In this document: positions 1,784-50,610 of the stretch, in pieces
Position numbering within the stretch: the stretch's first letter is position 1
Layout: each line of letters starts with the position of its first letter
From: a virus
Taxonomy: Duplodnaviria; Caudoviricetes
IMG/VR virus record: IMGVR_UViG_3300003406_000182
Coordinates: 1 to 50,610 of that record
Reading direction: 5' to 3' (one strand)
DNA length: 50,610 nucleotides
Program-made: the position numbers and the translations under genes
Notes under the pieces: generated by a model
Seen by the model: only the letters and a program-made list of their open reading frames with translations
What the model was told of the DNA's origin: nothing
Databases searched by the model: none

Positions 1784-2483
1784 TGATTTCGACGACCTGC
1801 TCGGCGACGAGCCACCCCGTCGCAGACGTGGCCGGCCGACGCGGGAAGAGGCTGCCGCGAGGCTGCAAGCGCAGATGTCGAGTGCCTTGCCGCACTATAC
1901 GGAGTTTCGTCGCCCTGTCGGCGTGACGTTCCTGGCGAACATTTGTGGCAAGCAGCCGAAGCAGATTCAGAAGCGTCTCGAAAAGTGCCCGACCGATTCG
2001 TGGCAGACGCACGGCGGTAAACAAGTTCCGCTCTACGATTTCATGACCGCCATGGCGTATCTCGTGCCGCCGCAGGGCAATATCGAAGACTGGTTCGCGC
2101 AGCAGAACGCAGCCAGTCTGCCGCCCTACGTCAACAAGATGTGGTGGGACAGCGCGAACCAGCGCAACCGCGTCATGCGCTCCTCGAACCAGCTTTGGCA
2201 CGACGAGGATGTGATGATGGTCTTCGGTCGCATCCTCATGCTCATTCGCGAGGAGAGCAAGTCGTGGGCCGATGATCTGCCAGAAAAGGACTTCCTGACC
2301 AACGACCAGTACAACGCGATCGTCGATGCGGCGAACCGGTTGAACAACCAGATCCGCGAAGCCCTGATCGATATGCCCCATCAGTTCAAAACGCTGTCCA
2401 TGGCGCACACGATCAACAATGAATTGAACGCTGCCGGTGCCTTGCCCGACGACGAACCGAAGGGCGACGATGACAATTCATAA
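1776..2483 (+). CDS. Terminase small subunit (DUF1441/Nu1-like)
   Basis: Directly upstream of and overlapping the large terminase; LPPYVNKMWWDS..R......LW motif of Chi-like small subunits. Confidence 0.75.
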   Translation: MPDDFDDLLGDEPPRRRRGRPTREEAAARLQAQMSSALPHYTEFRRPVGVTFLANICGKQPKQIQKRLEKCPTDSWQTHGGKQVPLYDFMTAMAYLVPPQGNIEDWFAQQNAASLPPYVNKMWWDSANQRNRVMRSSNQLWHDEDVMMVFGRILMLIREESKSWADDLPEKDFLTNDQYNAIVDAANRLNNQIREALIDMPHQFKTLSMAHTINNELNAAGALPDDEPKGDDDNS

Positions 2484-4650
2484 GACCATGCGTCCGCCGA
2501 CGCTCGACGAGTTGATCGACGCAGCGCCGTTCCCGTCCCTCGAAGCCCTGATCGCCAAGAGCGCGGAGTTGTTCAGCCCCAATGAGCGGCTGACGGTCAC
2601 GGAGTCGGCTGAGAGATACACGAAACTCGGCAGCGGCTCGGGTCGATCGGTCCTGTGGAATCTGACGAAAACACCCTACATCGCCGAGCCACAGGACACG
2701 CTCACCAGTCTCGATTATCGCGGCATGATCTTCGTGGGGCCGAGTCGTACGGGGAAAAGTGTGATGGCCTTAAATTGGGTCACTCATACTGTCATGAATG
2801 ACCCCGACGACATGCTCCTTGTTCACACCGACTCGAAGAACGGCCGCAAATGGTCGAAGGGCGAATTCGATCGTTACCTGATCGCATCGACCGCCGTGCG
2901 CCAGCGACAGCTTACGGCGCGGCAATACGACAACACGTTCGACAAGCAGTTCAAGTCGGGGATGCGCTTCAACCTCACCTTCCCCACGTCGAGCAACCTT
3001 TCGGCCATCACGGTCGGCAAGGTGTTCTTCATGGATTATGATCGCATCAGCGACGACACGGAAGGCGAGGGCAACCCCTACGACCTCGGCGCCACGAGAA
3101 CGCGCACCAAGGGACGCTTCGGCATGACGGCGGCGGAAAGCTCGCCGAACCCCGACAAGGAAATGCCTGATCCGAAGTGGACGCCCGACAGTCCGCATGC
3201 CGCGCCGCCCGCGCCAGGCATCTTCGAACTCTACAATCGCGGTGACAGGCGCTGCTGGTATTGGCCTTGCCCCCATTGTGGGGAGTATTTCGAAGGCCGG
3301 TTCGAGCATCTGCAAGGGTGGCAGGATAAGCACGACATGGCTGACGCGCTTGAGTCCGTTTACATGGCCTGCCCGGCCAACGGCTGCGTGATCGAGCCGC
3401 ATGAGAAGGAGCGAATGAACGCCCGTGGCATTTGGGTGCCTGACGGCGGTTGCGTCACGCGCGACGGCGAGATTGTCCCGATCGATGGGATGAAGATCGT
3501 CCGATCCAAGATCGCCTCCTTCTGGCTCAAGGGGCCGGCTGCCGGCTATTTCTCCTGGGCCGATCTCGTTGAAGCCTACATCATTGCACAGCGTGCATAC
3601 GAGGAGACTGGCGACGAGGGGCCGCTGCGCAAGACTGTCACGACCGATCAGGGGATGTACTACATCTCGAAGTCGCGACTGTCGGAGCGAACCCCCGAAC
3701 AGTTGCGTGAGCGCGCGGAAGATTGGGGATCTACCTCCGATAAACCCACGGTCCCCGAGGGTGTGCGTTTTATCATCGCCACGGTCGACGTGCAGGGAGA
3801 CGGCTTCGTCTGCCAGACGACCGGCTTCATGCCGAACGGTGATGCTGTCGTCATTGACGGCTGGAAGATCAAGTCGTCCGACCGATTGGACAGCGACGGG
3901 AAGAACCAGCCCGTTGATCCGCGAGCCTTCGCCGAGGATTGGGATATGCTCGTGCCGCTCGTGCTTGAGAAGACCTACGAGCTTGGCGACGGCAGCGGCC
4001 GGCATATGGGCATCCGCATGGCCGGCGTCGACGGCTACGGCATGGAGGGCGTGACCGTCCAGGCGTATCGCTTCTGGCAGCGTTTGAAGGCGCGCGGCGA
4101 CGGAACCCACCGCCGATTCGCCGTGACCAAGGGCGAGCCGAGGAAGGACTGGCCGATCGCCAAATCTGTGATGACGGAAGTTGGCGCCGGCAACAAGCAC
4201 GCGCTCGTGCGCGGCGCCATTCCTCGCATCCATTTCGGCTCGACCCTGGTGAAAGACGCGGTGGCGAATCTCATGGCTCGCCGAATCGCGGCCGAGGACG
4301 GGGAAGAGGGCGGTGGTAAACTGCGCTTCCCGCAATGGATGCCGAAATGGTTCTATTCGCAGTTGACCAACGAAATTCGCACGCCGAAGGGATGGGAGAA
4401 GCTCGGCAGTCGGCGAAACGAAGTGTTCGATCTCACGTCCTATGCCGTGGGTCTGGCCTATCGCCCGATCGAGGGCAACGAGTTCCCGTGGGTGCCCATC
4501 CATTTGCAGCGCATCAATTGGAAGCAGCCGCCCGCATGGGCCGCACCGTGGAATGAAAATGAGCTTGTGTTCGGCACCGTGGGAACGGCCGTGAAGGTTG
4601 AGGCACCAAAGAAATCTACTTTGTCTGATCTTGGTAATCGGCTGGCCTAG
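2470..4650 (+). CDS. Terminase large subunit (lambda gpA family)
   Basis: Walker A GPSRTGKS, Walker B FFMDYD, ESSP motif, YWPCPHCG zinc knuckle, TVDVQ nuclease motif, RNEVFD. Confidence 0.95.
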   Translation: MTIHKTMRPPTLDELIDAAPFPSLEALIAKSAELFSPNERLTVTESAERYTKLGSGSGRSVLWNLTKTPYIAEPQDTLTSLDYRGMIFVGPSRTGKSVMALNWVTHTVMNDPDDMLLVHTDSKNGRKWSKGEFDRYLIASTAVRQRQLTARQYDNTFDKQFKSGMRFNLTFPTSSNLSAITVGKVFFMDYDRISDDTEGEGNPYDLGATRTRTKGRFGMTAAESSPNPDKEMPDPKWTPDSPHAAPPAPGIFELYNRGDRRCWYWPCPHCGEYFEGRFEHLQGWQDKHDMADALESVYMACPANGCVIEPHEKERMNARGIWVPDGGCVTRDGEIVPIDGMKIVRSKIASFWLKGPAAGYFSWADLVEAYIIAQRAYEETGDEGPLRKTVTTDQGMYYISKSRLSERTPEQLRERAEDWGSTSDKPTVPEGVRFIIATVDVQGDGFVCQTTGFMPNGDAVVIDGWKIKSSDRLDSDGKNQPVDPRAFAEDWDMLVPLVLEKTYELGDGSGRHMGIRMAGVDGYGMEGVTVQAYRFWQRLKARGDGTHRRFAVTKGEPRKDWPIAKSVMTEVGAGNKHALVRGAIPRIHFGSTLVKDAVANLMARRIAAEDGEEGGGKLRFPQWMPKWFYSQLTNEIRTPKGWEKLGSRRNEVFDLTSYAVGLAYRPIEGNEFPWVPIHLQRINWKQPPAWAAPWNENELVFGTVGTAVKVEAPKKSTLSDLGNRLA

Positions 4651-9825: not shown

Positions 9826-9846
9826 TCGCTGCGGTGAAGAAATCAT

Positions 9847-9871
9847 AGGGCAGCCCATTGAAGGCTGCCCT
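9847..9871 (+). terminator. Hairpin after the capsid gene
   Basis: AGGGCAGCC..GGCTGCCCT inverted repeat with a weak T tail. Confidence 0.4.
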
Positions 9872-9896
9872 TCCTCTAAAACGGGAGATCCCTGAA

Positions 9897-25116: not shown

Positions 25117-25134
25117 TCTGAAAGGAGTTAACCC

Positions 25135-25518: not shown

Positions 25519-25528
25519 GATTTAAACA

Positions 25529-35899: not shown

Positions 35900-35915
35900 C
35901 TTCCCCCCGAAAGTC

Positions 35916-36188: not shown

Positions 36189-36210
36189 CGTTCCCTGAGA
36201 CGTAGGCCGA

Positions 36211-37029
36211 TCATAAAAGAAGGTCCGCGAAGTCGGCGCCTACGCCCGACACGGCCGGTTCGGATATTTCATCGATTTCTAATGCATCTTTTTGGCCCTC
36301 CAAATTGGTTCCCGTCTCCGTTGTGTCTGTTTCCCCGAGGAGATCGTCAAAGGAATATAATCCTATGTTCTCGTTTTGGTCCAGTGCCGCACTATGGGGG
36401 AGGTTGAAGCGGGCGTGGATAAGTTTTCGGTCGGGCCGTTGCAAAAGCTGGAATCCGCGGACTTTTTCTCCACGTTTCCAGACCACCCACATCACATCCA
36501 TGAGCGGGCTGCGGCCTCGCTCCTTCTCAAGAAACGCCGGTCTCCAGGTGAGCGGAAGGATGAGAGCCGGGGGGTTATCCTCAAACAACTTCGAGCGGCG
36601 CTGTGCATGCCAGTACTGCGACTTGAGCAGGAACGCGGCATTGGGTGCGATCGACAAGGCCCGCTGGATGAATAGATGCGACAGGTTGAAGGGCGGGTTG
36701 GTAATGATCCAATCCACCGTCGTGTTGACTTCGCAGGTGAGGAAATCAACGCATGGGTGGCCGCGAATGCCATCACCGCGCAAATCGCTTGACCATACAT
36801 GGTCGGGGCCAAGATATGCTTCGAGAACTACGGACATATGCCCGCCGCCGCATGCCGGTTCCCACGCGACAGTTCCCTGGGGTAATTGTAGATGCTCCAT
36901 CAACGCCACGGTCACATCAGCTGGCGTTGGATAGAAATCCGCGGGCTTTCTTTCGTGCGTCTTTTGCGACATCACGAGTGCGTCGGCGTAGGTATGGGTA
37001 TTCAACGTATGCCCTCGCGAATCCGACAT
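36211..37029 (-). CDS. Phage DNA amino-methyltransferase (probably N6-adenine)
   Basis: DFYPTP, WEPACGGG (motif I) and IITNPPF (motif IV). Confidence 0.88.
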   Translation of the reverse strand: MSDSRGHTLNTHTYADALVMSQKTHERKPADFYPTPADVTVALMEHLQLPQGTVAWEPACGGGHMSVVLEAYLGPDHVWSSDLRGDGIRGHPCVDFLTCEVNTTVDWIITNPPFNLSHLFIQRALSIAPNAAFLLKSQYWHAQRRSKLFEDNPPALILPLTWRPAFLEKERGRSPLMDVMWVVWKRGEKVRGFQLLQRPDRKLIHARFNLPHSAALDQNENIGLYSFDDLLGETDTTETGTNLEGQKDALEIDEISEPAVSGVGADFADLLL

Positions 37030-39370: not shown

Positions 39371-39943
39371 TCACGCGAAAAGTGAAATTACTGGCCGCCA
39401 ATCGTCAATCCAGGTGATGCGCCTATCGCTCTGGATCTCATCGTCTCGATTGTGGCGCCGTCGCATCATGAAGGTCTTGTTGCCGGCGTTCAGTCCCATG
39501 ACCGCATTGCGGTAATTGTCCTCGATCCAGATGCCGGTTCGGAGGACGTTGAGCCAGTGGGCTTTGCTTTCTCCGAGGGGGAGACAGAGGAGTCGGTCGA
39601 TCGCACCGCCGAAAACTCGCCCCAGGTTTTCCTTGCGCCGCAGTATCGTGGCCGGCTCCTCCGAGCAACTGGTCAGGACCGTCAACTGATGCCCGTTCGC
39701 CTTCAACAACGGGATTGCGGCACGCGCTTCAGGGAAGGCTTCAAGTTGCCCGAAAGACGGTGATGCATTGAACTCGGAAATGAGCGCCAGGCAATCAGGC
39801 CCGGGCACTCCAAGCCAATCGGAAAGTGACCATGACGCGGGGCCATGTGGATCTGGACAAAGATTGTGTGTAGCGGCCAACCACTTTCGAAATCCGCGCT
39901 GCCAATCAAGCAGAACGTCGTCGCAATCGAGAATGAAATGCAT
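39371..39943 (-). CDS. HAD-superfamily phosphatase, 5'(3')-nucleotidase-like
   Basis: Motif I ILDCDDVLLDW, motif II LTS, K, and motif IV WIEDN. Confidence 0.85.
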   Translation of the reverse strand: MHFILDCDDVLLDWQRGFRKWLAATHNLCPDPHGPASWSLSDWLGVPGPDCLALISEFNASPSFGQLEAFPEARAAIPLLKANGHQLTVLTSCSEEPATILRRKENLGRVFGGAIDRLLCLPLGESKAHWLNVLRTGIWIEDNYRNAVMGLNAGNKTFMMRRRHNRDDEIQSDRRITWIDDWRPVISLFA

Positions 39944-39981
39944 ATATTTCTCCCCTTGTGTGCGGCTAGACGAGGGTGGCC

Positions 39982-40203
39982 CTACTCACGTCCAGTATCC
40001 TCTGGGAGGGGGCGGGGCTTCGGATCGACCATGACGGAAGCGCGCGCAAGCATGTCGGCCACGTCCTGCATGTTGAACGAGCAGAGAAACGGATAGCCGT
40101 CCGCGAGCATCTGGAAGGTCGTGGAGAGGCTTTGCAGCATTGCGCAGTCTATTCGGCGGCGCTGCGCATCTGGCATATCCCGCACCGCCCGCTCACCCTT
40201 CAT
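39982..40203 (-). CDS. Hypothetical protein
   Basis: AGGAGG RBS; overlaps the upstream gene. Confidence 0.55.
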   Translation of the reverse strand: MKGERAVRDMPDAQRRRIDCAMLQSLSTTFQMLADGYPFLCSFNMQDVADMLARASVMVDPKPRPLPEDTGRE

Positions 40204-40456
40204 TGCCGGCCTCCTGCGATTGAAGGGCGACACGGCCAGCTTCGGTTAGGACATAGGCGGATCCATATGGCTCACCATCTTCGGTGAAACAGCCGCGCAT
40301 GAATTCGAGATAGCCTTCATCCCGGAGGCCATGGACGAGTTCGCGGATTTCGGCGCGCGACAGGCCGGTTCGATGTTCAAGCGCCTTGAAGTGATAGCCG
40401 AAGCCAACATCCTCGCCAGCCCATTCTTCGAATAGCTTCCGTTGCGCCGCCGTCAC
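40193..40456 (-). CDS. Winged-helix-like protein
   Basis: GTGA overlap; TGLSRAEIRELVHGLRDEGYL..GSAYVLTEAG. Confidence 0.65.
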   Translation of the reverse strand: MTAAQRKLFEEWAGEDVGFGYHFKALEHRTGLSRAEIRELVHGLRDEGYLEFMRGCFTEDGEPYGSAYVLTEAGRVALQSQEAGNEG

Positions 40457-40842
40457 CGTCCGGCCTCCTCATTGGCGAGAGCGACGGGCTCACGTGACAT
40501 TGCGTACTCGATCGCGTCGAAGGCGCGGAGAGCATATTCGGCGTTGTCGAATTCGATAGTGATTGTCGAACGGTGCTTTGCAAGCGTGCCTTCCGGCAGT
40601 CGCAGCCGCCCGACTTCCGCCTCAAGTGCGGTTGCACGGGATTCGGCTTTCTCCGCGCGGATGGTTGCCGCGCGCTCGTCTGCTTCGGCCTCATCCCGTT
40701 CCTTCCGCAGTGCCTCGTTATCGGCGGTGAGGCGGGAGATGGTGTCGGCGGCTTCGTTCTTGACAGCCCAAGGGCAATAATCGTTCTTTTCTTCACCGTC
40801 GATGCGCAGCTGTTCAACGATATCTTGTGCGGGGAGGGTCAT
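40453..40842 (-). CDS. Hypothetical coiled-coil phage protein
   Basis: DIVEQLR..EAADTISRL motif common in phage accessory genes; ATGA overlap. Confidence 0.7.
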   Translation of the reverse strand: MTLPAQDIVEQLRIDGEEKNDYCPWAVKNEAADTISRLTADNEALRKERDEAEADERAATIRAEKAESRATALEAEVGRLRLPEGTLAKHRSTITIEFDNAEYALRAFDAIEYAMSREPVALANEEAGR

Positions 40843-41696
40843 GACTGGTCGCCTCTCTGTTCAGAAGGAGCGGCGGGGAGGGGCATCCAGTGGGTGTAGT
40901 CAAAAGCCAGATGTGGGCTGGTTGAGAAGACTCCCGACACGATCTCGGATAGGTGCTCACGCACGTAATCGACGTTGGCAACTTCGGCGCACCATTGGCC
41001 TTTGCCGTTATAGCATCCGACGATCACAAGACCTTTTTCGGGGAGACTGTTCAGCGTTCGCCACCCCTCCTGCTCTCCTGCCCGTAGTGCATCGATACGT
41101 TGCTTGGCCAGCCAATACACACGAGCCGCAAGGCTCATGGTATGGCCGCGTTCTTGGCGCGGCACGCCGAGTGTATCCATATCATCGTGCGCTTGGGCTA
41201 GTTCCGCATCGCTGGCTGACGATGGCCCATAGAATTCGGGGAATACACCCCCGCTTGCACGAAGGTCGGCAAACACCAGTTCATCGGGATCAATCTCGAC
41301 GTGATCTCCTGCCCGTAGACGGGAGAGGAGGGCGTTGATCTCCTGCGCATCGTTGTCGTCGGTCATGCCGAAATACCGACCATTCCAGTGCCGCTCCAGC
41401 ACCCGCCCCACCTCGTCTTTGAGCGGTAGGGCTCTCAACCGTGCATTTTCTGCCTCGGCGGCTGTCCATGCGGCGGTTCGGTTGTGTGCGACTTCCTTGT
41501 ACTCATCCAGCTTCGCCCGCAGTTCCGCGATCTGGCGCTCGGCTATGTCGGAGCGGAGGTATTCGACATTGCCAGCGCCATGCGCTCCCCATGTGGGCCA
41601 CACACCAGCCAGCCAAGTGCCTTTCTTGCCGTCTTTTACAGGAAGGGGTGTTCTTGATGTTGGATTAGCCCAAATTCGTTCGGGAGCCTCAACCAT
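40839..41696 (-). CDS. Mosaic phage protein with a C-terminal DUF551-like domain
   Basis: APERIW, VEYLRSD and W.....LP..THWMPLPAAP motifs. Confidence 0.75.
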   Translation of the reverse strand: MVEAPERIWANPTSRTPLPVKDGKKGTWLAGVWPTWGAHGAGNVEYLRSDIAERQIAELRAKLDEYKEVAHNRTAAWTAAEAENARLRALPLKDEVGRVLERHWNGRYFGMTDDNDAQEINALLSRLRAGDHVEIDPDELVFADLRASGGVFPEFYGPSSASDAELAQAHDDMDTLGVPRQERGHTMSLAARVYWLAKQRIDALRAGEQEGWRTLNSLPEKGLVIVGCYNGKGQWCAEVANVDYVREHLSEIVSGVFSTSPHLAFDYTHWMPLPAAPSEQRGDQS

Positions 41697-41928
41697 CGCC
41701 CCTCTCCTGCTCATCGGTGCTGAAGGTCCATGACGCGCTGCTGTTCACTTGGAAACTTAGATTGCAGGAAAGGCACTCGACTTCGTGCATGTCGTTTTCG
41801 TCGTAAAGATGCCAGGCCTCGCTTTCGCTGATATCGAATTCGCTGCCGCAATGTGGACACTTCGGCCTTTTGTTCGCGAAGAATGAAAGCCAGTCGCCGG
41901 CATCAAGGGCCGCAAATCGATCAACCAT
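41689..41928 (-). CDS. Zinc-ribbon protein
   Basis: CPHC..CLSC; GAGG RBS. Confidence 0.7.
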   Translation of the reverse strand: MVDRFAALDAGDWLSFFANKRPKCPHCGSEFDISESEAWHLYDENDMHEVECLSCNLSFQVNSSASWTFSTDEQERGDG

Positions 41929-42153
41929 CTACCGGACCTCCTTTGCGACGATTTCCTTGACGCGCTCGCGGTCGAACCAGACCACAAGTCCGAGTTTTTC
42001 CGTGCCATTGAAATTGATACGCTGCGGAGTGCCAAAGGTGACCTTCGTCACGCCCTTGTTCATGTTGAGCGCATCCGTGCAGTCGTCCAGGTTCTGGAAC
42101 CGGATCTTGTCATCGCCATAGGCGGCTATGAGTTCGGAGAGTTTGAGCGACAT
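41929..42153 (-). CDS. Hypothetical protein
   Basis: Packed between its neighbours (MSLKLSELIAAYGDD..). Confidence 0.65.
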   Translation of the reverse strand: MSLKLSELIAAYGDDKIRFQNLDDCTDALNMNKGVTKVTFGTPQRINFNGTEKLGLVVWFDRERVKEIVAKEVR

Positions 42154-42154
42154 G

Positions 42155-43408
42155 TCACCGGCCATCCGACTTCGAGAGGGAAGAAATGGCTTCATCAATG
42201 GCAGCGCGCGGGTCGTCGTGATAGACTTCCGCTATGGTCCTCTCGCGGGGCTCGGCCATCCAATGGCCAACGACGCGCCAGCCGATATCATAATCGTCAC
42301 CACCTGTTGGGATATCGAAGCAGCGCAAATCCCAACTCTCATCTCGCAACTTGTCGAAACGCTTGGTGTCATCCAGCGCCTCCACCACCCGCTCATCGGC
42401 GGCCTTGCAGCATTCCGAAAGCGCATATTTCTCGGCACACGGGCTTGGCGGGTTATCGTCTGGATGACAGGTGCATGTCCGCTCGTCGGCGGGACGGAGT
42501 TGGAAAAGTGTGGCATAGACGGCCCGCATGGCCTCTCGCTGCTCTTTGTCCGTTGCCTGCGGGAAGATGTAATCTGTCGTGCGGTTATATGCTCTGACCA
42601 TTTCTGATATGGTGGCATCTTCCGCCACCGCCTGCCCGCCTGCGCCTATGGCGGCGAGACCATCAAGCATATGTTGGACCATGGCCTTCGCCTGCCGGTA
42701 GTCGAGCAGGTTTGTACCGACAGGCTCGCGACGGGACTGAGACTCGGTCCCCATATTGATGATGGGGTCAAACGCGATACCGCCATCAGGGTTGAAGTCA
42801 TCCGGCAGTTTCCAGCGGAGGAACCGCAGCACCATGTGCTCGACCACCGCATCCGTCACCTGCGCCGGATTGACGACGTGGCTGGTCTCGCCCGATTGCT
42901 CGTCCGCAGGGGTTCCTTGTGCGGCTCTTTCCCCCGGCTTTTGCCACGTTTGTTCTTCGCCCTGCGCCGGATTGGCGGCCTGCGGGGAGGCGTAGAGAGG
43001 GCCAACTTCCTTGAACGGGTCGGTCAGCGCGTAAAGCGGGATGGCGAAATATTCGTCGCTGTTTTCCAGCGGGTCGCTTTCGAGTTCCCAGCTATCTTCG
43101 GATAACCCACGGCAACCGTTTAGCCAGCCGAACGGGCCGTACAGACCGCCAGCCGCTACCGCCTCGCCTGCTTGGGGCTGCGGCGCTACCTGTGATGGAG
43201 AGGCGCGGCGTTCGGCGGCTATCGCCTTGGCAACATCATTCGGGAATGACGAGCTATCCCAATATGGGACGCTGCTCGTATCGCGGCGCACGTTCACAAG
43301 AATGCGGACATGCGGCTCATCCTCGATCATATGCCAGAAGCGCGCGATGTGGTCCGCCAGCGACGTTTGTGCGCAAGCCTTCTCATCCAGTGCAACATCG
43401 CTCATCAC
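42155..43408 (-). CDS. Mosaic multi-module hypothetical protein
   Basis: 417-aa ORF with GAGGGGG RBS; module MVLRFLRWKLPDDFNPDGGI..PVGTNLL; internal short repeats. Confidence 0.7.
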   Translation of the reverse strand: MMSDVALDEKACAQTSLADHIARFWHMIEDEPHVRILVNVRRDTSSVPYWDSSSFPNDVAKAIAAERRASPSQVAPQPQAGEAVAAGGLYGPFGWLNGCRGLSEDSWELESDPLENSDEYFAIPLYALTDPFKEVGPLYASPQAANPAQGEEQTWQKPGERAAQGTPADEQSGETSHVVNPAQVTDAVVEHMVLRFLRWKLPDDFNPDGGIAFDPIINMGTESQSRREPVGTNLLDYRQAKAMVQHMLDGLAAIGAGGQAVAEDATISEMVRAYNRTTDYIFPQATDKEQREAMRAVYATLFQLRPADERTCTCHPDDNPPSPCAEKYALSECCKAADERVVEALDDTKRFDKLRDESWDLRCFDIPTGGDDYDIGWRVVGHWMAEPRERTIAEVYHDDPRAAIDEAISSLSKSDGR

Positions 43409-43490
43409 ATTTCCCCCTCAATTCCCATTTCGATATCGGCTCGCTTGGCTGTCGCGAGCATGCTTCCGACGATGAACCAGGTGTGCAACA

Positions 43491-43655
43491 TCACGAGGCT
43501 GCCCTAGCCGCAGCGATATCTCGTTCCAGCCGTTTGATCTCTTCGGACCATTGTTCCTTCTCGGCCTGCATCCTGGAAAAGTTGTCGATGTAACTCGCCA
43601 TCTTGCGATGCCACTTGGCCCGCTCCAATGCGTCTTCCAGCTCCTGAATGGTCAT
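43491..43655 (-). CDS. Small coiled-coil protein (54 aa, not in the ORF track)
   Basis: MTIQELEDALERAKWHRK..IAAARAAS; ATGA overlap with the upstream gene. Confidence 0.55.
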   Translation of the reverse strand: MTIQELEDALERAKWHRKMASYIDNFSRMQAEKEQWSEEIKRLERDIAAARAAS

Positions 43656-43813
43656 CCCATCTTCCTTCCGTGTGCGTTGCCGATCCAGCGCGTCCTGCAG
43701 CAGGGGCAGAACTCGCCTCCGAATCCCTTCCGATAAACATGAGGGCGAAGGCCCGATCGAGCGGGGCAGGGGCCACGCCTGAATGCGCGAACGATTCGTC
43801 GCAGCAGACTCAT
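43652..43813 (-). CDS. Small Cys-rich protein
   Basis: MSLLRRIVRAF..C......H..CPCC; ATGA overlap. Confidence 0.55.
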   Translation of the reverse strand: MSLLRRIVRAFRRGPCPARSGLRPHVYRKGFGGEFCPCCRTRWIGNAHGRKMG

Positions 43814-44010
43814 CGGCCGGTTACCGATCGACGAAGAAGCCGGCCCAGGATGCGGCCGTCCTGCTGCATGGCGGCGAAGATGTAAGATTGGCCGAAGTCG
43901 CGCTCGAAGCGATCCCGTGGCAACGGCTCGACCGTCCGCATATCGTCGAGCATCTGCACGGTGTCGTCGCATTGCGGCGTGCGGAAGCCGAAAACATTGA
44001 TGCCCGTCAC
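43810..44010 (-). CDS. Hypothetical protein
   Basis: GTGA and ATGA overlaps on both sides. Confidence 0.5.
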   Translation of the reverse strand: MTGINVFGFRTPQCDDTVQMLDDMRTVEPLPRDRFERDFGQSYIFAAMQQDGRILGRLLRRSVTGR

Positions 44011-44234
44011 AGCGACCGCCAGTTCAGGATCGCGACACGCCTGTTGCCGTGCGCTCTGGTGAGAGCGCCGAGGATCGCGCTGTAGTTCTCAGCGGAATCG
44101 ATGTCCTCGACGTATGTGTCGAGCACCTGCGAATAGTGCTTCCCGGCGACCACGTAGGCGATGAAGATGTGATATGGCGCGGGAGGCTGCGGCGCCGCTT
44201 CCTTCGCTTCGGTAGGTGTCTCATTCTCGCTCAT
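44007..44234 (-). CDS. Hypothetical protein, first gene of the leftward operon
   Basis: GGGAG RBS; a promoter-like sequence lies upstream. Confidence 0.7.
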   Translation of the reverse strand: MSENETPTEAKEAAPQPPAPYHIFIAYVVAGKHYSQVLDTYVEDIDSAENYSAILGALTRAHGNRRVAILNWRSL

Positions 44235-44259
44235 GGTCGTCTCCCGCGTTGATGAGCCG

Positions 44260-44300
44260 AAACTCTCACGTCAAAAAGTGAAAGTCAATTAAAAAGTGAA
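44260..44300 (-). promoter_or_regulatory. Leftward promoter with tandem TCAC/GTGA boxes
   Basis: Minus strand TTGACT-tTCACtttttgacGTGA-GAGTTT (17-nt spacer). Confidence 0.5.
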
Positions 44301-44382
44301 AGTGTGAAGCTGATTTTCCCCGAGGGGCCTATTTCTCCGGGGCGGGGCTTGTCGGGTGCGTAGGAATATGATCCTATGAGGC

Positions 44383-44631
44383 ATGGGAACACGTCGCATC
44401 CACGATTACAGTTATCTGATCGAACGCCTCGACGAGCGCAACAACACGATCGAGACCATCGGCGAGATGAACAACTTCGCTGTCGCCAAAGCAGCTTTCG
44501 AGGCCGCCCTGACGCAGCGCACCATGGCCCGCCTCACTCTGCGCGAGGGCGGACGCATCATCGAACTGGTTGAAACCGGGCTGTACGACTCCAAGACGGG
44601 CAAGGTTGCCGTGCTGCAGCGCCGCGGCTGA
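44383..44631 (+). CDS. Hypothetical protein (moron-like)
   Basis: GAGG RBS; A.AAFEAA..QR....LTLREG.RII motif; stop codon lies inside a repeat copy. Confidence 0.7.
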   Translation: MGTRRIHDYSYLIERLDERNNTIETIGEMNNFAVAKAAFEAALTQRTMARLTLREGGRIIELVETGLYDSKTGKVAVLQRRG

Positions 44632-44693
44632 TTTTCTCCGAGTGGTTGCAAATCGGTCGTCGACGTGGTTGAGTTTGCCGGGTGGAGGGCTCC

Positions 44694-45092
44694 ATGACCA
44701 AAGCAATCGTTACAGGAATCGCGCTGCTTGCGTTCGGCGTCACGATGGGCAGTGCCGCAGCGTCTGGCGTTCATACGCTTTCGGTTGCCGAGCAACAGAC
44801 CGTCCGCGAAGCTCTGCTCGAACAACTCAAAGATCCTGACAGTGCCCGGTTCAAGGACTTCGTTGCGGTCACCAAATCCGGTGACACGGAAACTGTCTGC
44901 GGCCTGGTTAACGCCAGAAACTCCTACGGCGGATATTCAGGCTTCGCACCTTTCTACGGCCTGCTGATGAAGGCGAAGGCGAAGAGCGGCGCCAAGGTTC
45001 CGTTCTTCTGGATCGGCAAGATCGGCGGCACTGCGGCTGACACTTCGATCGTCGTCGATATGTGCGCAAAGGACGGCATTTCCATTCTCTGA
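44694..45092 (+). CDS. Exported protein of the LKDPDSARF type (moron-like)
   Basis: Signal peptide; LKDPDSARF..VCG.VNARNSYGGYSG motif; stop codon lies inside a repeat copy. Confidence 0.75.
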   Translation: MTKAIVTGIALLAFGVTMGSAAASGVHTLSVAEQQTVREALLEQLKDPDSARFKDFVAVTKSGDTETVCGLVNARNSYGGYSGFAPFYGLLMKAKAKSGAKVPFFWIGKIGGTAADTSIVVDMCAKDGISIL

Positions 45093-45366
45093 TTTTCTCC
45101 GAGGCGTCGGAATCCCATTTTCTCCGAGGGGTCTATTTCTCCGAGGGGTCTATTTCTCCGAGGGGCGGCCTGCCGCAGCAGCTGGCCGGCTCGTCGAAAT
45201 GAGGCGGCCGGAATCGTCGGTCGCCTGGTCGCCGAGCAAATCGTTTCACTTCCGGAACGAAATGCAGGAATAAAAACCTAGGAAAATATGCCTACATTTT
45301 AGGCATGCCGGCGACCTGGCGCCGCGCTAACCGATTGCCTTGTTTCAACTTTCTTTCACGTCGCGA

Positions 45367-45407
45367 TTGACTCTATCGTGTAGTTTCACTAATTACGTGA
45401 AAGTCAC
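45367..45407 (+). promoter_or_regulatory. Rightward early promoter with GANTC at -35 and a TCAC-N7-GTGA-N3-TCAC box over -10
   Basis: TTGACT-N17-TAATTA; same layout at 47069. Confidence 0.6.
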
Positions 45408-45423
45408 TTGAAAGGAGTCGACC

Positions 45424-45654
45424 ATGTGGGATTGTGAATACACTGACACATTCGTAGGCGAGGCGAATTATTCATGGGTGCATCGCGCCGAAGTCAAAAA
45501 CATAGAAGGCGCGAGCAACCGCCGCATGGCGCGCGAATTTAAAGCCGTGCTCGGCCTTACCGGTATGCGCGGCCGCAGCTATTGGCATGGCGATGCATGG
45601 GAATTCCGGCCGTATAAATCTTGCACAATCGCCTTCGCCCAATTCCGCGATTGA
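45424..45654 (+). CDS. Hypothetical early phage protein
   Basis: AAAGGAG RBS; EYTDTF.GEANYSWV.R motif. Confidence 0.75.
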   Translation: MWDCEYTDTFVGEANYSWVHRAEVKNIEGASNRRMAREFKAVLGLTGMRGRSYWHGDAWEFRPYKSCTIAFAQFRD

Positions 45655-45681
45655 ATCACGTTTAAAGAGGGAATCACGCAA

Positions 45682-45912
45682 ATGCGTTCAATCATCCTCG
45701 CCTTACTCGCCTGCAGCGCTACCGGTCTCGGCACCATGTATCTGGCAAAAGTCGCTTGCGACCTGCCCGAGCCGGCAACGTTCGAAATAGTCGCCGAGAC
45801 CTATTCCGGCAACGTCTATGTGGCGGGAGTCGGCGACAGCTGCCGCGCAGCATGGGAAGGCGCACGCGTCCCTTCCGACTGGTCAAGCATCATTTGCCGG
45901 GAGTCAAAGTGA
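45682..45912 (+). CDS. Small membrane-anchored or exported protein
   Basis: Starts at a repeated leader; hydrophobic N-terminus. Confidence 0.65.
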   Translation: MRSIILALLACSATGLGTMYLAKVACDLPEPATFEIVAETYSGNVYVAGVGDSCRAAWEGARVPSDWSSIICRESK

Positions 45913-46142
45913 TGGACTTTCTCGCCCTGCAGCGTTGCCTCAATCGGGCACGCGCGGCCGTTCGCAACGGCAACATCATTACAGCCGACTCGCATATGCG
46001 CCATGCGCTCAGCATCGCCAATTCGCTGAAGAGCGCGACGGCCAGGCGCGTCATTTTCCGAATCCGAAACAAGATGCGGCCGCATGTGTCGCGGGAACTG
46101 GACTACATCGCCGCGCAAATCGTTGCCGGCAAATTCAACTGA
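45912..46142 (+). CDS. Small basic hypothetical protein
   Basis: GGGAG RBS; TGATG coupling (MDFLALQRCLNRAR..). Confidence 0.6.
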   Translation: MDFLALQRCLNRARAAVRNGNIITADSHMRHALSIANSLKSATARRVIFRIRNKMRPHVSRELDYIAAQIVAGKFN

Positions 46143-46154
46143 AAAGAGGGAATC

Positions 46155-47072
46155 ATGTCAATGTCACTTAAGGAAATCTGGAATCGTCAATCCTATGCCG
46201 GAGGAACGCCAAGCGCTGCCGAATTGCTTGTTTGGTCCTATCGATACCATAGGGCCACGGGATTGCGCGTCGATAGATATTCGCTGCATTCGCGCGGCGC
46301 ATTGGCCGTCGACGCCATAAAAGAGGCACGCAGAGAAGCTGCAGCAGGGAAGACTCGTTACCTTTCCAGTCTTCCGGCCGGCTATGGCACGAGCGGAAAG
46401 CCATTCTCCGCATACGGCTCAAAGCACATGCGATTCATCGAGTCCTCGATCGCGGCCGGACTCCGCTTTGTCGGCTATGCGGACAAGATCGCCGAGTTGC
46501 AGCATACCGGCTGGTATCTGCAGAATGGCGACTACAATGAATCCGTCCGCGGAGTCATCTTTCGCATGGCTGCCCGGAATGGCGTCGAGCGTTTCGTAGG
46601 CGGCTACGAAGATCCGTGGAACGGCAAAGCCGACTCCGATGGACCTGTTTGCCTCGACTTCAGCGACATTCGCGACTCGGAACGCGATGCTGCCTATGCT
46701 GCCGACTCCATTGCCGAGCGCATGGCGAAAACGCATCGCGAATATGACGCAGCATGGCAAGCCGGTAGCCAATATGCCGGGCTCGGGGAAGTGATTTCCG
46801 ATAGCCGTGCCGAGATCAAAGAGTCAATCTCACTTTTCCGCCAGCTGCGCCGCGACCTGGTAGCCGCGTCGATCGACGTTGCGAAATACGGCAAGCTATG
46901 CGCGACCATTCGCGGCGACGTGCGCAAGGAACTGGACTCCATCGCCGAAGCACGGGCCGAACGCGCCAGGCTGCGGGAAGGCGACTGGATATCCGAACGG
47001 CTGCCCGGTTGGAATTCCAACGATTCGAACCTGGTCGCCGCGTTCAATGACGGCGCCGGCATAGCCGCTTGA
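46155..47072 (+). CDS. Hypothetical early phage protein
   Basis: 305-aa ORF with GAGGG RBS; GLRFVGYAD..HTGWY..AAYAADS.AE motif. Confidence 0.75.
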   Translation: MSMSLKEIWNRQSYAGGTPSAAELLVWSYRYHRATGLRVDRYSLHSRGALAVDAIKEARREAAAGKTRYLSSLPAGYGTSGKPFSAYGSKHMRFIESSIAAGLRFVGYADKIAELQHTGWYLQNGDYNESVRGVIFRMAARNGVERFVGGYEDPWNGKADSDGPVCLDFSDIRDSERDAAYAADSIAERMAKTHREYDAAWQAGSQYAGLGEVISDSRAEIKESISLFRQLRRDLVAASIDVAKYGKLCATIRGDVRKELDSIAEARAERARLREGDWISERLPGWNSNDSNLVAAFNDGAGIAA

Positions 47073-47108
47073 CTCTCGTATCAATTTCACTAAATAAGTG
47101 AAAGTCAC
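47069..47108 (+). promoter_or_regulatory. Second rightward early promoter with the same architecture as 45367
   Basis: TTGACTC..tTCACtaaataaGTGAaagTCAC. Confidence 0.55.
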
Positions 47109-47131
47109 TTTTGACAGAAAAGGAACGTGAA

Positions 47132-47245
47132 ATGAAAACTTCCAAATCGACCTTTGCCGAATCCGAACGCGGCCGCATTCGCCGCGATAGCCGGCGCCGG
47201 GCACGGCATGCCAAGCGCACCTTCGCCTTCATGGCTTCGGTCTAA
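47132..47245 (+). CDS. 37-aa arginine-rich peptide (not in the ORF track)
   Basis: AAAGGA RBS; MKTSKSTFAESERGRIRRDSRRRARHAKRTFAFMASV. Confidence 0.5.
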   Translation: MKTSKSTFAESERGRIRRDSRRRARHAKRTFAFMASV

Positions 47246-47259
47246 TGGGAGTCGGGAAA

Positions 47260-47649
47260 ATGAAGTATCGTGAACCGAAGCCCGAGACCGTCCTGGCTGC
47301 CACACTGGCAAGTGAACCGGGCGAACATTCTATCGGCCACTATGCCGCGTGTGACGCGGAGTCGCTTGTGCGTCTCGGCAAACGTGCTGCCCGCATTGCC
47401 GAGCAACGCTGCAACGGAATCGAACGCTTCGATCCGAAAGCCGGCCGCGTGCTCGCGACCTGGACGGAAGAGGATGAAACGCGCGCCGATCAAGCTGCCG
47501 AGCGCATCCGCAAACAGGCTGCCGAGATTCTGAAATCCTATGGCGCGGATAGCGTCACGGTAGGCGGAGATCCGCGCGGCTTTTGTCTCACATTTCGCCT
47601 TGCATCCGGCCGTTCGAATTCGGCTAGCTCCGGCATTTGGGGAGTCTGA
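47260..47649 (+). CDS. Hypothetical early phage protein
   Basis: GGGAG RBS; AE..CNG..GDPRG motif. Confidence 0.75.
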   Translation: MKYREPKPETVLAATLASEPGEHSIGHYAACDAESLVRLGKRAARIAEQRCNGIERFDPKAGRVLATWTEEDETRADQAAERIRKQAAEILKSYGADSVTVGGDPRGFCLTFRLASGRSNSASSGIWGV

Positions 47650-47652
47650 GCC

Positions 47653-47847
47653 ATGTTGAAAATTGAGTTTTCAACGGAAAACGCCGCCTTCGACGAAAGC
47701 CCGGCCGAAGTGACCGCGCGCATTTTGCGCGATATCGCTACCAAGATTGAAACCACGTCGCATGGTGGCGGCCCGGTCTATGACGGCAATGGCAACCGAA
47801 TCGGAGTCTGGACTCTCAGCATCCGCGATCGCGAGTCCGACGCATGA
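47653..47847 (+). CDS. Hypothetical early phage protein
   Basis: F.TENAAF..E.ARILR.IA..D.NGNRIG.W motif; GGGAG RBS. Confidence 0.75.
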   Translation: MLKIEFSTENAAFDESPAEVTARILRDIATKIETTSHGGGPVYDGNGNRIGVWTLSIRDRESDA

Positions 47848-47981
47848 TTCCCGCGGCTTCCGTCCAACGTCAGCGCGACCTGGTAGCCGAGTCCATCGCT
47901 GCCGAGCCATTCGCGGAGTCGGCATTCGCTGCCGTCGATATCCTGGACGGTAACGATTGGCATTTGCCGAGCCGCGCCTAA
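47844..47981 (+). CDS. 45-aa hypothetical protein (not in the ORF track)
   Basis: ATGA overlap; fills the gap up to the next repeated leader. Confidence 0.45.
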   Translation: MIPAASVQRQRDLVAESIAAEPFAESAFAAVDILDGNDWHLPSRA

Positions 47982-48010
47982 AAATCAACTTTAAAGAGGA
48001 AATCACGCAA

Positions 48011-48547
48011 ATGCCCGAATTCATTCTTGATACGGCCGGACGCGTGCCGATTGCCCATGCCGAACACATCATGGGCGCCACGTTGGCTTTCGATAACCTG
48101 GACGCCTTCACGCAAGGCTATATCGAAGCGCTGTTTTTCACATCCGAATGCCCGCAAGTCGACACGGAAGAATTCTGGACTCCTGAGTTTCAGGAAGACA
48201 TGCGGGAAGGCCGCGCGGATGGAGTCCTACCGTGCGACGTGGGGTTCGGCGACCTAAGCCCGGAAGCGCTGCAAAGCATCATTGCCGATTGCCGCGATTT
48301 TCAGGAAGCCAACGCCGCGTTGCTCGGGCAGGCATATGAGACCGTCCGCGAATACACGTGCGGCCATTACGATCCGACCTATGACGCATCGCAAGCCGGC
48401 CGCGATTTCTGGTTTACCCGTAACGGCCATGGCGTCGGCTTTTGGGACCGTGGACTCGGCGAGGTAGGCGAAAAGCTTTCCAAGGCGTGCGGCCGAACTG
48501 AGATCGATCCTTATTTCGGCGAAGACGGCCGAGTCCATCTCGATTGA
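48011..48547 (+). CDS. Acidic hypothetical early phage protein
   Basis: Starts at a repeated leader; FTQGYIEALFF..QAGRDFWFTRNGHGVGFWDR motif. Confidence 0.8.
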   Translation: MPEFILDTAGRVPIAHAEHIMGATLAFDNLDAFTQGYIEALFFTSECPQVDTEEFWTPEFQEDMREGRADGVLPCDVGFGDLSPEALQSIIADCRDFQEANAALLGQAYETVREYTCGHYDPTYDASQAGRDFWFTRNGHGVGFWDRGLGEVGEKLSKACGRTEIDPYFGEDGRVHLD

Positions 48548-48577
48548 ACTATCACCTTTAAAGAGGGAATCACGCAA

Positions 48578-49201
48578 ATGAATCTTTTTGAAACCGAAAA
48601 GCAACTGGCAGCTTCCGGCTACCTTTTCCGCATCGTCGACAATGGTGGCGCGACCTTCGATCGTATAACCGTCATTTTCAGCGACGGGGATTGCCTCGGC
48701 CTATCGCAAAGCGGCGCCGGCTTTTCCCAATGGGGCGGCAATATAGACCTGCAGGGGATAGCCGAACGCGTTGAAAGCGGCGAAGAGGTCGACCTTTCAT
48801 TCGGCGACCTATTGCCCGAATTGCGCTTGCACATTCTCCGCAGAGTCAATGAGGCATGGCGCGACTCTCTGGAAGCGATCGCGGCCGATAATCGCGACAT
48901 CGTAGCAAGCGGCCGTGAGAAGGCTGAAGTCAATGACGGCACATGGCAAAGCGGTGGCAAGGGCATTTATGCGGCCGGAACGGCCTATTGCGTGCGCCTG
49001 GACTCCTATTGGGGTGGCGAAGACCGCGGACCTTACACAAGCCCGGCTGAAGCATTGGCAGCCACGTTGCCGGATGCATATTCGCTTGCCGGTCCTGAGT
49101 ATCATTCATCCGTCGACGTGGACTCGATGAAACGGACCAAGGGCACGGCCGCCAGGTTGCGCGCCTTGGAAAAGCGCAACGCAATGGAGTCGGCAGCATG
49201 A
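48578..49201 (+). CDS. Hypothetical early phage protein
   Basis: Starts at a repeated leader; DNGG.TFDR.TV..GFSQWG motif. Confidence 0.75.
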   Translation: MNLFETEKQLAASGYLFRIVDNGGATFDRITVIFSDGDCLGLSQSGAGFSQWGGNIDLQGIAERVESGEEVDLSFGDLLPELRLHILRRVNEAWRDSLEAIAADNRDIVASGREKAEVNDGTWQSGGKGIYAAGTAYCVRLDSYWGGEDRGPYTSPAEALAATLPDAYSLAGPEYHSSVDVDSMKRTKGTAARLRALEKRNAMESAA

Positions 49202-49452
49202 CCTATTTCAATGGGCATGGTTTCACGGATTGCCGAGGCCAATGGCGCTATGCACCCACGACGGCAATCTACTGTGACACATGCGCGGAATCAGCAATTC
49301 CGCTGCCGCAGATTGATTCTCGCCGAGATGGGGAATCCGATGCTGAACACGCGCGGCGGGCGGGCGGACAGCGCCACCACGGAACCGATTTCAAATGGGC
49401 GCCCTGGTATGGCGGAAACACCGCATGCATGAAATGCGGGAAGCTTGTCTAA
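49198..49452 (+). CDS. Small zinc-binding protein
   Basis: CDTC..CMKCG; ATGA overlap. Confidence 0.6.
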   Translation: MTYFNGHGFTDCRGQWRYAPTTAIYCDTCAESAIPLPQIDSRRDGESDAEHARRAGGQRHHGTDFKWAPWYGGNTACMKCGKLV

Positions 49453-50610
49453 ATGACCTTCCTACATCTCGGCAATGGCGCCGCTATCCCGTATCGCTAC
49501 CTTTCCCGTCACGTGGGAATCTTCGGTGCAACGGGAACCGGTAAATCCGTCACGCTTGGCGCCATTGCCGAGCGTGCGCCTTGCCCGATTCTGATATTCG
49601 ACGCGAAAGGCGACCTTGAGTCCCTTGCGTCGACTCTCATTCGGCCGGCTATGCGGATCGATGCAATGGGCGCCGATCTACTAGCACGCGCCCTAGACCT
49701 ATCCGAAGCACAAGCCGGCGCCCTTCAGATTGCCCTCGCATGGGCCGAAGACTGCAACCGCGGCGTTGCCACGCTCGCGGATCTGCGCTGCCTGCTTAAC
49801 GATGCGCTGCAGCACGATCTAAGCGGCGCCTACGGTCTCATATCCCCGATATCCGTTGCGGCCGTCCAGCGTGCCCTATTGCGGCTGGAACGGCATTCCC
49901 CGTGGACTTTCACCGCGTCGACGTTCGATCCGCGCGACACGGCCGGAATCGCGGTCTACGCAGCTGCCGAACTGGCCAGCGTGCCAGGTCTATATGGCGC
50001 GTTTGCCGCCCATGTGCTCGACTCGCTTTATCGCGGTCTCGGGGAAGTCGGCGACGTGGCAGCACCCGGACTCCTGGTTATGATCGACGAAGCGCATTTG
50101 ATATTTGACGGTGCGAGTCCATCCATCGTGCGGCGCATAGAACAAATCACGCGACTCATTCGTTCGAAGGGAGTCGGCCTGGTCTATGTGACGCAATCGC
50201 CTTCGGATCTACCGGCCGCGATAGCCGGGCAGCTGGCAACGCGGATTCAACATGCTTTGCGCGCATCGACTCCGCAGCATCTCAAAGCGCTTAAAGCCGC
50301 GGCCGAGACCATGCCCGGCAACATCGCTGCCGCGGATATCCTGGGACTCGGAACCGGGCAGGCTATCGTTTCCATTCCAGATGCGGCCGGCAAGCCCTTG
50401 CCAGGTCGCTGCGTTGCCATACAGCGCGGCAAGGTCGCTTTGCATGGCGTAGGGCTTCCTGAGCCTGTACAGCCTGCTAGGGCGCCCATGGCGGCAGATG
50501 AGCCTATCCCCGAGCCTTCGGCGCCCATGCCTCGCCCATGGTGGCGCTATGCTGTCTGGACGGCCGCGGCGCTATGGGGACTCGTGCTGATAGGCCACGC
50601 GTTGCCTTAG
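49453..50610 (+). CDS. HerA/FtsK-superfamily ATPase (DUF853/YjgR-like) with a C-terminal TM segment
   Basis: RH..I.GATGTGKSVT Walker A, DAKGDL, L.EVGD...P.L..IDEAHLIF, EQ..RLIRSKGVG...VTQ.P.D and RIQHALRA; Pro linker then WWRYAVWTAAALWGLVLIG. Confidence 0.88.
   Translation: MTFLHLGNGAAIPYRYLSRHVGIFGATGTGKSVTLGAIAERAPCPILIFDAKGDLESLASTLIRPAMRIDAMGADLLARALDLSEAQAGALQIALAWAEDCNRGVATLADLRCLLNDALQHDLSGAYGLISPISVAAVQRALLRLERHSPWTFTASTFDPRDTAGIAVYAAAELASVPGLYGAFAAHVLDSLYRGLGEVGDVAAPGLLVMIDEAHLIFDGASPSIVRRIEQITRLIRSKGVGLVYVTQSPSDLPAAIAGQLATRIQHALRASTPQHLKALKAAAETMPGNIAAADILGLGTGQAIVSIPDAAGKPLPGRCVAIQRGKVALHGVGLPEPVQPARAPMAADEPIPEPSAPMPRPWWRYAVWTAAALWGLVLIGHALP

Follow-up and report, generated by a model that had tools for sequence, protein, structure and literature searches.

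The stretch analysed here is the 50,610-nt virus record IMGVR_UViG_3300003406_000182, referred to as a whole as the window and listed as a provirus of 75% completeness. This report deals with its right end, a terminal arm at 45200..50610 (+) that is dense in GANTC, the methylation word of CcrM, and purged of restriction-type words. The window contains the inner part of this arm and stops before the cohesive end site (cos). A lambda-type head module, with terminase, portal and capsid related to those of Chi-like phages in PHROGs, gives the window a feature of the Casjensviridae. Its large terminase subunit (2437..4650, +), which is of the lambda type, is 54% identical to that of Rhodobacter RcD-type phages and 44% to that of RHph_X2_30, and other Casjensviridae records match at 39-44%; going by the taxonomy lines of the matches, the closest are Casjensviridae of Rhodobacter and Sinorhizobium. 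By these matches the window is classed as a Chi-like (Casjensviridae) provirus, and the terminase matches, together with a Mesorhizobium-named homologue of one arm protein, suggest an alphaproteobacterial host.

For comparison, 17 records were set with cos at the right, ten of them grouped as alphaproteobacterial and seven as others. In this grouping the hosts of the window and of G001-G004 are inferred ones, S-ESS1, which is labelled Synechococcus, was put into the alphaproteobacterial group by judgement, XAP3 is labelled Xanthomonas yet has a terL 95% identical to that of Salmonella phage SAP012, and the Phobos record names no host; in Phobos cos was not located and the extent of the arm is uncertain. 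The genomes are not independent of each other (G001, G002 and G004 about 80% identical, SAP012 and XAP3 95%).

Position, border and gene content of the arm

The inner border of the arm is marked by a direct-repeat array of TTTCTCCGAG (45094..45165, +; copies at 45094, 45119, 45136 and 45153), a candidate injection-stop or protein-binding array. Outer copies of this repeat lie at 44315..44345 (+), with another at 44633, and the small genes between the repeat clusters (44383-44631 and 44682-45092) are neither purged nor GANTC-rich. The cargo between the two clusters appears to be swappable: at 44383-45092 of the window, 35598-36720 of G001 and 25100-25650 of G002 the genes differ from relative to relative and keep the word use of the rest of the genome. 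The same repeat occupies the same border in G001, G002 and G004, and different repeats are found there in RcMcDreamy, DSS3-P1, S-ESS1, SAP012, XAP3, AVP3 and AchV4. Lineage-specific arrays of this kind at the inner arm border across the Casjensviridae (the window and ten relatives) are a candidate injection-stop signal.

The original prediction had seen the switch in GANTC density at a repeat/cos-like junction. The repeats are indeed at the switch; the junction is not cos. No cosQ-like word GGGTCC(T/C), which we take to be the lambda motif, was found in the window (75% complete), and the relatives have their cos at the opposite end of the arm, by which a cos at the 45-kb junction was ruled out. 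The complete relative G002 has, in this order, primase, a cosQ-like GGGTCCT with cos, an arm of 8.4 kb in which five window arm genes have homologues, and TTTCTCCG-type repeats; in Enc34 cos is annotated beyond an outward-pointing arm. By motif, cos was placed in G002, G004, X2_30, AchV4 and N133; a 12-base cos end past a right arm of small genes is the layout expected of Casjensviridae. Because relatives (G002, Enc34) carry cos at the far end of the arm, the repeats at 45094-45165 most probably form its inner border, and cos would lie beyond 50610. In complete relatives the homologous arms adjoin cos, and for the window the terminal position follows from this homology. Packaging of lambda DNA ends with the cosQ side, which is the first to leave the capsid. 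The claim of a first-entering arm is borne out as far as the neighbourhood of cos goes, and its entry direction is carried over from the lambda rule.

The arm genes point outward in the window, as they also do in Enc34, RcMcDreamy, DSS3-P1 and G003, and inward in G001, G002, G004 and X2_30, the GANTC island being present both ways. Among the window, G001, G002, G004, X2_30, S-ESS1 and AchV4 the genes run toward cos in some and in the opposite direction in others; the breakpoint lies immediately beyond the repeats, and by this comparison of gene order the arm was inverted during evolution. Misassembly or an artefactual inversion was considered as an explanation and ruled out, since four sequencing runs gave no joints and other phages share outward arms. 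A single contig covers 43000-50610 without a joint and continues beyond the window end; it is possibly the window's own source and hence not independent.

Two early promoters are predicted in the arm. In the first (45367..45406, +), which was missed by a consensus promoter scan, the -35 TTGACT overlaps a GANTC site and a TTTCAC..GTGAAA palindrome, a candidate operator, spans the -10. The second (47069..47107, +; repeat family D13) has the same layout, which with its TTGACTC at -35 is conserved in two copies each in G001 and G002. TTTCAC..GTGAAA palindromes and GTGAAAGTCA words occur at 45384-45402, 47085-47103, 44278, 39364 and 4652, that is, at the early promoters, in the leftward promoter region and after terL, and are likely repressor operators. 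The leader TTTAAAGAGGGAATCACGCAAATG is repeated ahead of several arm genes (45666, 46145, 47995, 48562), possibly as a recombination point for gene-cassette exchange.

Eight small or medium-sized genes (45424..47981, +; 45424-45654, 45682-45912, 45912-46142, 46155-47072, 47132-47245, 47260-47649, 47653-47847, 47844-47981) have no function assigned, and for those scanned, searches of PHROGs, Pfam, PADLOC and NCBIfam gave no match to a named family that passed the cut-off. At 48011..48547 (+) lies the gene of an acidic 178-aa protein (net charge -22; 1533 homologues), whose family is found across many phages, in their early or terminal regions, and has a conserved TRNGHGxGFWDR motif. Its confident model (predicted local distance difference test score, pLDDT, 93) matches uncharacterised phage proteins only and no solved structure; the protein is a candidate anti-defence protein and entry-region marker. 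Two genes without assigned function follow (48578..49452, +), namely 48578-49201, 61% identical to RcMcDreamy gp81, and 49198-49452. The gene at 49453..50610 (+) encodes a HerA/DUF853-like ATPase (Pfam HerA_C, 2.7e-67) and contains 14 GANTC sites. PADLOC, NCBIfam, ESM Atlas (two proteins), a PDB profile search, Foldseek and VIA-align (best: Z 4.1, root-mean-square deviation 3.5, 65 aligned) yielded no function for the arm proteins, a missing match being no sign of novelty. Gene names of the A1/A2 second-step transfer type were absent from the PHROGs, Pfam and NCBIfam matches of the scanned proteins of this incomplete arm.

The GANTC island and its host pattern

A recount gave 65 GANTC sites in 45200-50610, 10 in 39790-45199, 16 in 5000-10000 and 175 in the whole window. 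The first three numbers are exactly those of the original prediction, and its chance level of about 4 per kb compares with about 3.6 per kb from base composition. When the arm is compared with the rest of the window, GANTC leads the gapped words (x4.9, p 3e-20), and among pentamers GACTC/GAGTC ranks first (42 versus 41 in the rest, x8.5). As had been described, the sites lie inside genes (56 of 65 wholly within predicted ones) and TTGACTC is present at both 45367 and 47069. The 12 arm genes hold 57 sites, spread over all three frames, compared with 30.4±3.5 under synonymous permutation and 17.8±3.9 under codon-order shuffling, and the observed count was reached by 0 of 300 shuffles. The codon control proposed alongside the original prediction thus leaves the enrichment in place under both types of shuffling, although mostly as GA(G/C)TC (39 versus 13.0), with GA(A/T)TC flat at 18 versus 17.1. 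Asp-Ser and Glu-Ser dipeptides are doubled in the arm genes (15 versus 7.2 each).

Among pentamers GACTC was a far outlier (241 versus 52, z 29; runner-up z 14). The absolute observed/expected (O/E) ratio of GANTC is 1.5-3.3 in the arms and 0.45-0.86 in the rest of the genomes, and since the latter under-use the word, arm/rest ratios are inflated. The maximal-order Markov O/E in the arms is only 0.9-1.45; it was set aside because the sub-words GANT and ANTC are themselves products of the sites. No rule of spacing or helical phasing was found for the sites, and 2 of 22 arms have sites spaced a little more regularly than by chance. We conclude that the GANTC island is real and selected, and the shuffles back the earlier claim of selection for a dense array.

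The island recurs in homologous arms of relatives, partly at different positions, and follows the host group. The arm/rest GANTC ratios in the ten alphaproteobacterial-group records are 5.0, 4.6, 4.1, 3.8, 3.7, 3.1, 2.5, 2.4 and 1.9 (all p<1e-3) and 1.5 (pCB2051-A, p 0.04), which gives an island in 9 of 10 arms versus 0 of 7 in the other group (ratio 0.7-1.35 in all seven). GACTC/GAGTC, at x4.2/4.6 in the alphaproteobacterial arms, is at x0.21/0.37 among the avoided words of the others. Around the arm marker gene in GTDB loci, of which 51 of 69 were used after exclusion of short or unassigned ones, the median near/far GANTC ratio was 2.1 in 16 alphaproteobacterial and 1.2 in 35 other loci (p 9e-4). 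The terminal repeat of CcrSwift is enriched as well (x2.1, p 1e-3), and 14-20 sites per kb are reached in L100/G006. Viral loci carrying the marker gene numbered 80, of which 78 had flanks long enough; as many lack an island and come without a host assignment, they did not serve as a test. Because about half of the GANTC sites differ between ATPase orthologues (13 and 11 in the comparison with G002, 6 of them common to both; background 0.29), density is kept more than site position; the Klebsiella-phage orthologue has a single GANTC. The opposite strategy, total avoidance, is seen in the phage loci L126, L144 and L165, with 0-1 GANTC in 12-18 kb. In enteric arms it is GATC, the Dam word, that is raised, by x1.5-2.0 in Enc34, SAP012 and XAP3 (three of five), a weaker parallel to the GANTC gain, whereas AchV4 and Phobos have it lowered; GATCA is the top pentamer of enteric arms under codon-order shuffling.

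Loss of adenine-bearing words and their tolerance at GANTC sites

Besides gaining GANTC, the arm has lost other words. Of 764 six-mers that could be tested in the window, G002 and X2_30 arms, 46 are at or below 15% of expectation, compared with 0-1 in eight control segments; none of the 46 is palindromic and every one contains A or T. Three Rhodobacterales-type arms have 76 of 597 six-mers purged and four non-alphaproteobacterial arms 19 of 1126 (controls 0-4). From the pooled purge and exemption tests N133, G003, pCB2051-A and Phobos were excluded because their arms are weak or partial. The depletion is strand-symmetric (r 0.72), and arm codons shift where AG, AC and TC pairs can go (CAG, AAG, GAG, TTC, ATC, CTC), while GCC, GGC and CGC stay. 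A set of 91 six-mers purged in five other phages occurs at 18.9 per kb in the window arm and 57.7-59.1 per kb to its left. The word set trained on other phages switches in the window at about 45250, and a leave-one-out Markov model, likewise trained on other phages, places a sharp border at 45258, in agreement with the sharp switch originally described; in 11 of the 17 records such a border coincides with a direct-repeat array. In relatives the purged terminal blocks are 5-11 kb long. In the held-out G006, G007, G008 and CcrSwift the most purged bins are the densest GANTC bins, and G007 and G008 have no match to the window terminase.

Loss and gain are linked at the GANTC adenine. In the arms, free GAG and GAC fall to x0.57 and x0.67 while GASTC rises 4.4-fold, and free GAA stays at x0.92 while GAWTC rises 2.3-fold, so that the cut of GAG and GAC with GAA spared matches the GASTC bias of the island. 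A first flank-slope test was weak (0.18 versus 0.32-1.25 in 15 controls). The exemption test was cross-validated between two phage sets and stratified by middle base, with the avoided/favoured ratio as the measure. Words that end in the GAN of a GANTC had a ratio of 0.81-0.90, against 0.40-0.51 when free, and the ratio was graded, with 0.57-0.75 for words ending in GA and 0.39-0.49 for those touching only the G; one base away it was 0.27-0.35 (free 0.28-0.32), and at four mock sites 0.28-0.67. The p-values and intervals here are optimistic. Avoided words are statistically largely tolerated when they cover the GANTC adenine and not when one base off, which is the behaviour expected of a methylated adenine. 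A codon-sampling simulation at the observed purge strength, which omits bipartite Type I sites, gave 40-46 sites with shielding and 23-30 without it, 56 coding sites being observed.

A gene for a phage adenine methyltransferase with an NPPF motif lies at 36211..37029 (-). It is a homologue of PhiLM21_p027 (32% identity over 197 aa, E 9e-18), which is reported to be GANTC-specific (PMC5537653). The enzyme is predicted to methylate the virion GANTC sites, with an identity of 32% that does not fix the target. Both this homologue and the purge of restriction words had been overlooked by the original prediction, which otherwise held in part. In the leftward operon, the window, G001, G002, G004 and RcMcDreamy carry an adenine methylase of either the p027-like or the beta-class family, two unrelated families that alternate between these close relatives. 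The RcMcDreamy beta-class methylase was considered as CcrM-type and rejected, since its CcrM match is confined to the S-adenosylmethionine motif, as in other beta-class enzymes.

Explanations for the island and their wider meaning

We favour the explanation, to which we give a probability of about 0.55, that the arm is first-injected and restriction-exposed and hides its unavoidable adenines in pre-methylated GANTC, methylation and entry order being its inferred parts. Lying between the repeat array and, in complete relatives, cos, the arm would by the lambda rule be packaged last and ejected first, and this first DNA would meet m6A-type (N6-methyladenine) restriction of the Type I, IIG, III or BREX-like kind before phage counter-measures exist. 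Dozens of asymmetric A-containing six-mers would for this reason have been lost from both strands, with codons leaving AG, AC and TC pairs. Virion GANTC would be fully methylated by the phage p027-like enzyme and/or host CcrM, and the methylated adenine, over which avoided words are, on the statistics, largely tolerated, may read as self or block the overlapping site. Mutations that complete GA(G/C)TC would then be favoured where Asp, Glu, Ser, Val and Leu codons force GA or TC, which would account for the G/C middle base and the site turnover. That Type IIG, III and BREX-like systems target asymmetric m6A six-mers is established (see also 10.64898/2026.09.23.753747), and the purged words are presumably real restriction targets. 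Position-dependent restriction also has precedent (PMC10644984, PMC12455610).

Several observations weigh against this explanation. The p027-type enzyme is present in only three of the ten alphaproteobacterial-group records, six carry a beta-class methylase without an established target, and in S-ESS1 neither type was found. The alphaproteobacterial Chi-like pCB2051-A (HQ632859.1, Loktanella) has neither island nor purge, GANTC being raised in its last kilobase only, and in G010, a weak case, the island comes with little purge. Of 18 published Ensifer motifs, 7 are depleted at p<0.05 and 3 enriched (CTGCAG x3.2), a mixed outcome in which 16% of all six-mers lie below 0.33 anyway. Words for which no methylase is shown are raised too: CGGCCG occurs 25 times versus 7.6 expected in the window arm genes, and in five rhizobial-type arms (window, G001, G002, G004, RHph_X2_30) CGGCCG is at x2.7 and GGCGCC at x2.9. 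One Rhizobium strain carries methylation at GGCGCC (PMC8709438), and YCGGCCGRV is recorded, with a low frequency, in S. meliloti (PMC11711589), but the YCGGCCGR context is not favoured. Mock sites sharing GANT are partly lifted as well (0.52-0.67), and enteric GATC shows no exemption (0.87-1.02 avoided versus 1.76-2.45 favoured; flank slope 0.91). The simulation with shielding falls 10-16 sites short, nearly all GASTC (about 22 predicted versus 38). Since the genomes are related and the words overlap, intervals are too narrow and p-values optimistic. As a separate observation, CGGCCG makes up 26 of 43 GGCC in the window arm versus 41 of 284 elsewhere, and four whole genomes of phages from other hosts contain it once or not at all.

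It could also be, though with a chance that we put well below that of the methylation shield, that a host or phage protein preferring (methylated) GA(G/C)TC coats the first-entering arm and pulls in, anchors or protects it, site density being under selection for binding and the purge being a separate consequence of first entry. The outlier position of GACTC among pentamers, the GASTC sites that the simulation under-predicts, the density of L100/G006 and the slightly more regular spacing in 2 of 22 arms would all fit such a protein, and a GANTC reader acting on top of shielding is possible. From a reader alone, however, one would not expect the lifting of flank avoidance to be confined to adenine-covering words, no rule of spacing or phasing supports it, and no candidate was seen among the scanned arm proteins. 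The original prediction had suggested a particular reader, with the array recruiting GcrA-sigma70 RNA polymerase or reporting the cell-cycle methylation state to the early promoters. This fares poorly and appears improbable to us, in spite of the TTGACTC at the -35 of both predicted promoters and its conservation in G001 and G002, and of a gene annotated as GcrA-like that adjoins the arm in RHph_X2_30. GcrA reaches DNA mainly via sigma70 and acts at promoter-proximal sites, with YGAKTCK as its Caulobacter consensus (PMC4647560), whereas most sites of the window arm are intragenic and, by sequence, GANTC lies within about 40 bp of the predicted start at two predicted promoters. YGAKTCK, a consensus which may differ in this host, accounts for 9 of 65 sites in the window arm versus 21 of 103 elsewhere, and its share is below that of the rest of the own genome in 6 of 9 arms; the top-ranked TGATTCG is under-used (pooled 4 of 483 versus 28 of 1100), and no GcrA gene was found in the window (75% complete). 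In favour of GcrA, YGAKTCK reaches 11 of 27 versus 23 of 103 in the CcrSwift terminal repeat, and 70 of 111 in L121. Even so, the two -35 GANTC sites could be regulatory. The GcrA context is favoured in other GANTC-rich phage regions (L121 70/111, L023 24/47, L098 23/47, L020 25/56), and a GcrA-linked class of such regions may exist elsewhere.

Another possibility, which we regard as hardly more probable than GcrA recruitment, is a T5-like first-step-transfer segment with the methyl array as part of the injection switch, in which entry would halt at the repeat array and resume through a methylation-sensing step. The sharp border, which coincides with direct repeats in 11 of the 17 records whatever the direction of the arm genes, and the repeat-rich stop signal of T5 (10.1101/866236) speak for it, whereas nothing ties GANTC to the border, non-alphaproteobacterial relatives have border and purge without GANTC, two-step entry is hypothetical for the Casjensviridae, and the repeats could be operators or an origin. 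Least probable, and already largely refuted by the shuffles and the host contrast, is a passive by-product of the codon or amino-acid use of small early genes, or of non-avoidance of a word that no host enzyme cuts. Such drift would fit the lower G+C content at third codon positions in the arm (0.66 versus 0.76), the two- to three-fold shift of many words, the under-use of GANTC in the rest of the genome and the GATC of the window arm, whose loss is absorbed by codon use (21 versus 21.7 after codon control). It does not fit the absolute O/E of 1.5-3.3, the survival of both shuffles, the 23-30 sites that avoidance without shielding predicts, or the single site of the same ATPase in a Klebsiella phage; furthermore, codons leave C-ending ones, on both strands, unlike the translational adaptation described for plasmid leading regions (PMC13478746).

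Compared with known systems, the arm appears to work like the first-step DNA of T5 and the early-injected region of Murciavirus, without being a member of the T5 family, from which cos ends and the gained methylation word set it apart. With the first-step-transfer DNA and injection-stop signal of T5/BF23 (PMC10644984; 10.1101/866236) it shares a several-kb terminal block, small early genes, restriction-type words that are locally missing and present elsewhere, and a repeat-rich non-coding inner border. It differs in that relatives of the window have cos ends and not long direct terminal repeats, in that the purged words are non-palindromic, and in that T5 DNA avoids Dam/Dcm methylation whereas in this arm a methylation word has accumulated and a methylase is encoded by the phage; for this arm two-step entry is hypothetical. 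In the Autographiviridae (Murciavirus) with its Type I sensitivity (PMC12455610), likewise, only first-entering sites matter and asymmetric m6A targets select there; that work, in the accessible text, concerns one motif and one host and does not mention enrichment of a host methylation word. With the Caulobacter promoters activated by CcrM and GcrA (PMC4647560) the arm shares the GANTC word and two promoters with GANTC at -35, while its sites are mostly intragenic, GASTC-biased and outside the YGAKTCK context. The PhiLM21_p027 family (PMC5537653) shares the NPPF-type adenine methylase, at 32% identity; a regulatory or replication role is proposed in that paper, whereas we propose that the predicted enzyme may arm a GANTC-dense entry segment. 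In the Dcm-type orphan methylation of plasmids (PMC11602122) the mark of an orphan methylase also blocks restriction, although there marks protect existing sites, whereas here the sequence has apparently been rewritten, with adenines moved into the marked word in one region only. A literature search, with most subscription papers and all supplements outside it, found no published account of GANTC enrichment in a phage entry region, nor one that connects such an island with purged arms.

More tentatively, and with odds that we place below even, several unrelated alphaproteobacterial phage families (Chi-like, phiCbK-like and unclassified ones of 80-94 kb) might have rewritten their first-injected proteins and codons as methylation camouflage, in which would-be target adenines sit inside GANTC, the single word taken as self by every host, under a phage-installed mark, the Chi-like case being a T5-like first-step unit ended by a repeat array. 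According to 10.64898/2026.09.23.753747 and PMC12455610, genome-wide surveys find no uniform avoidance of asymmetric (Type I, IIG, III) sites among phages; here they are apparently strongly avoided, but in one arm only. Cultured phages on laboratory hosts (RcMcDreamy, DSS3-P1, CcrSwift) make the methylation shield directly testable. If it is true, it would give a reason why many alphaproteobacterial phages carry CcrM-like methylases, it would mean that selection on DNA words alters protein sequence, as in the doubled Asp-Ser and Glu-Ser dipeptides, and it would provide a sequence-only marker of the first-entering end and of the host class in uncultured phages.

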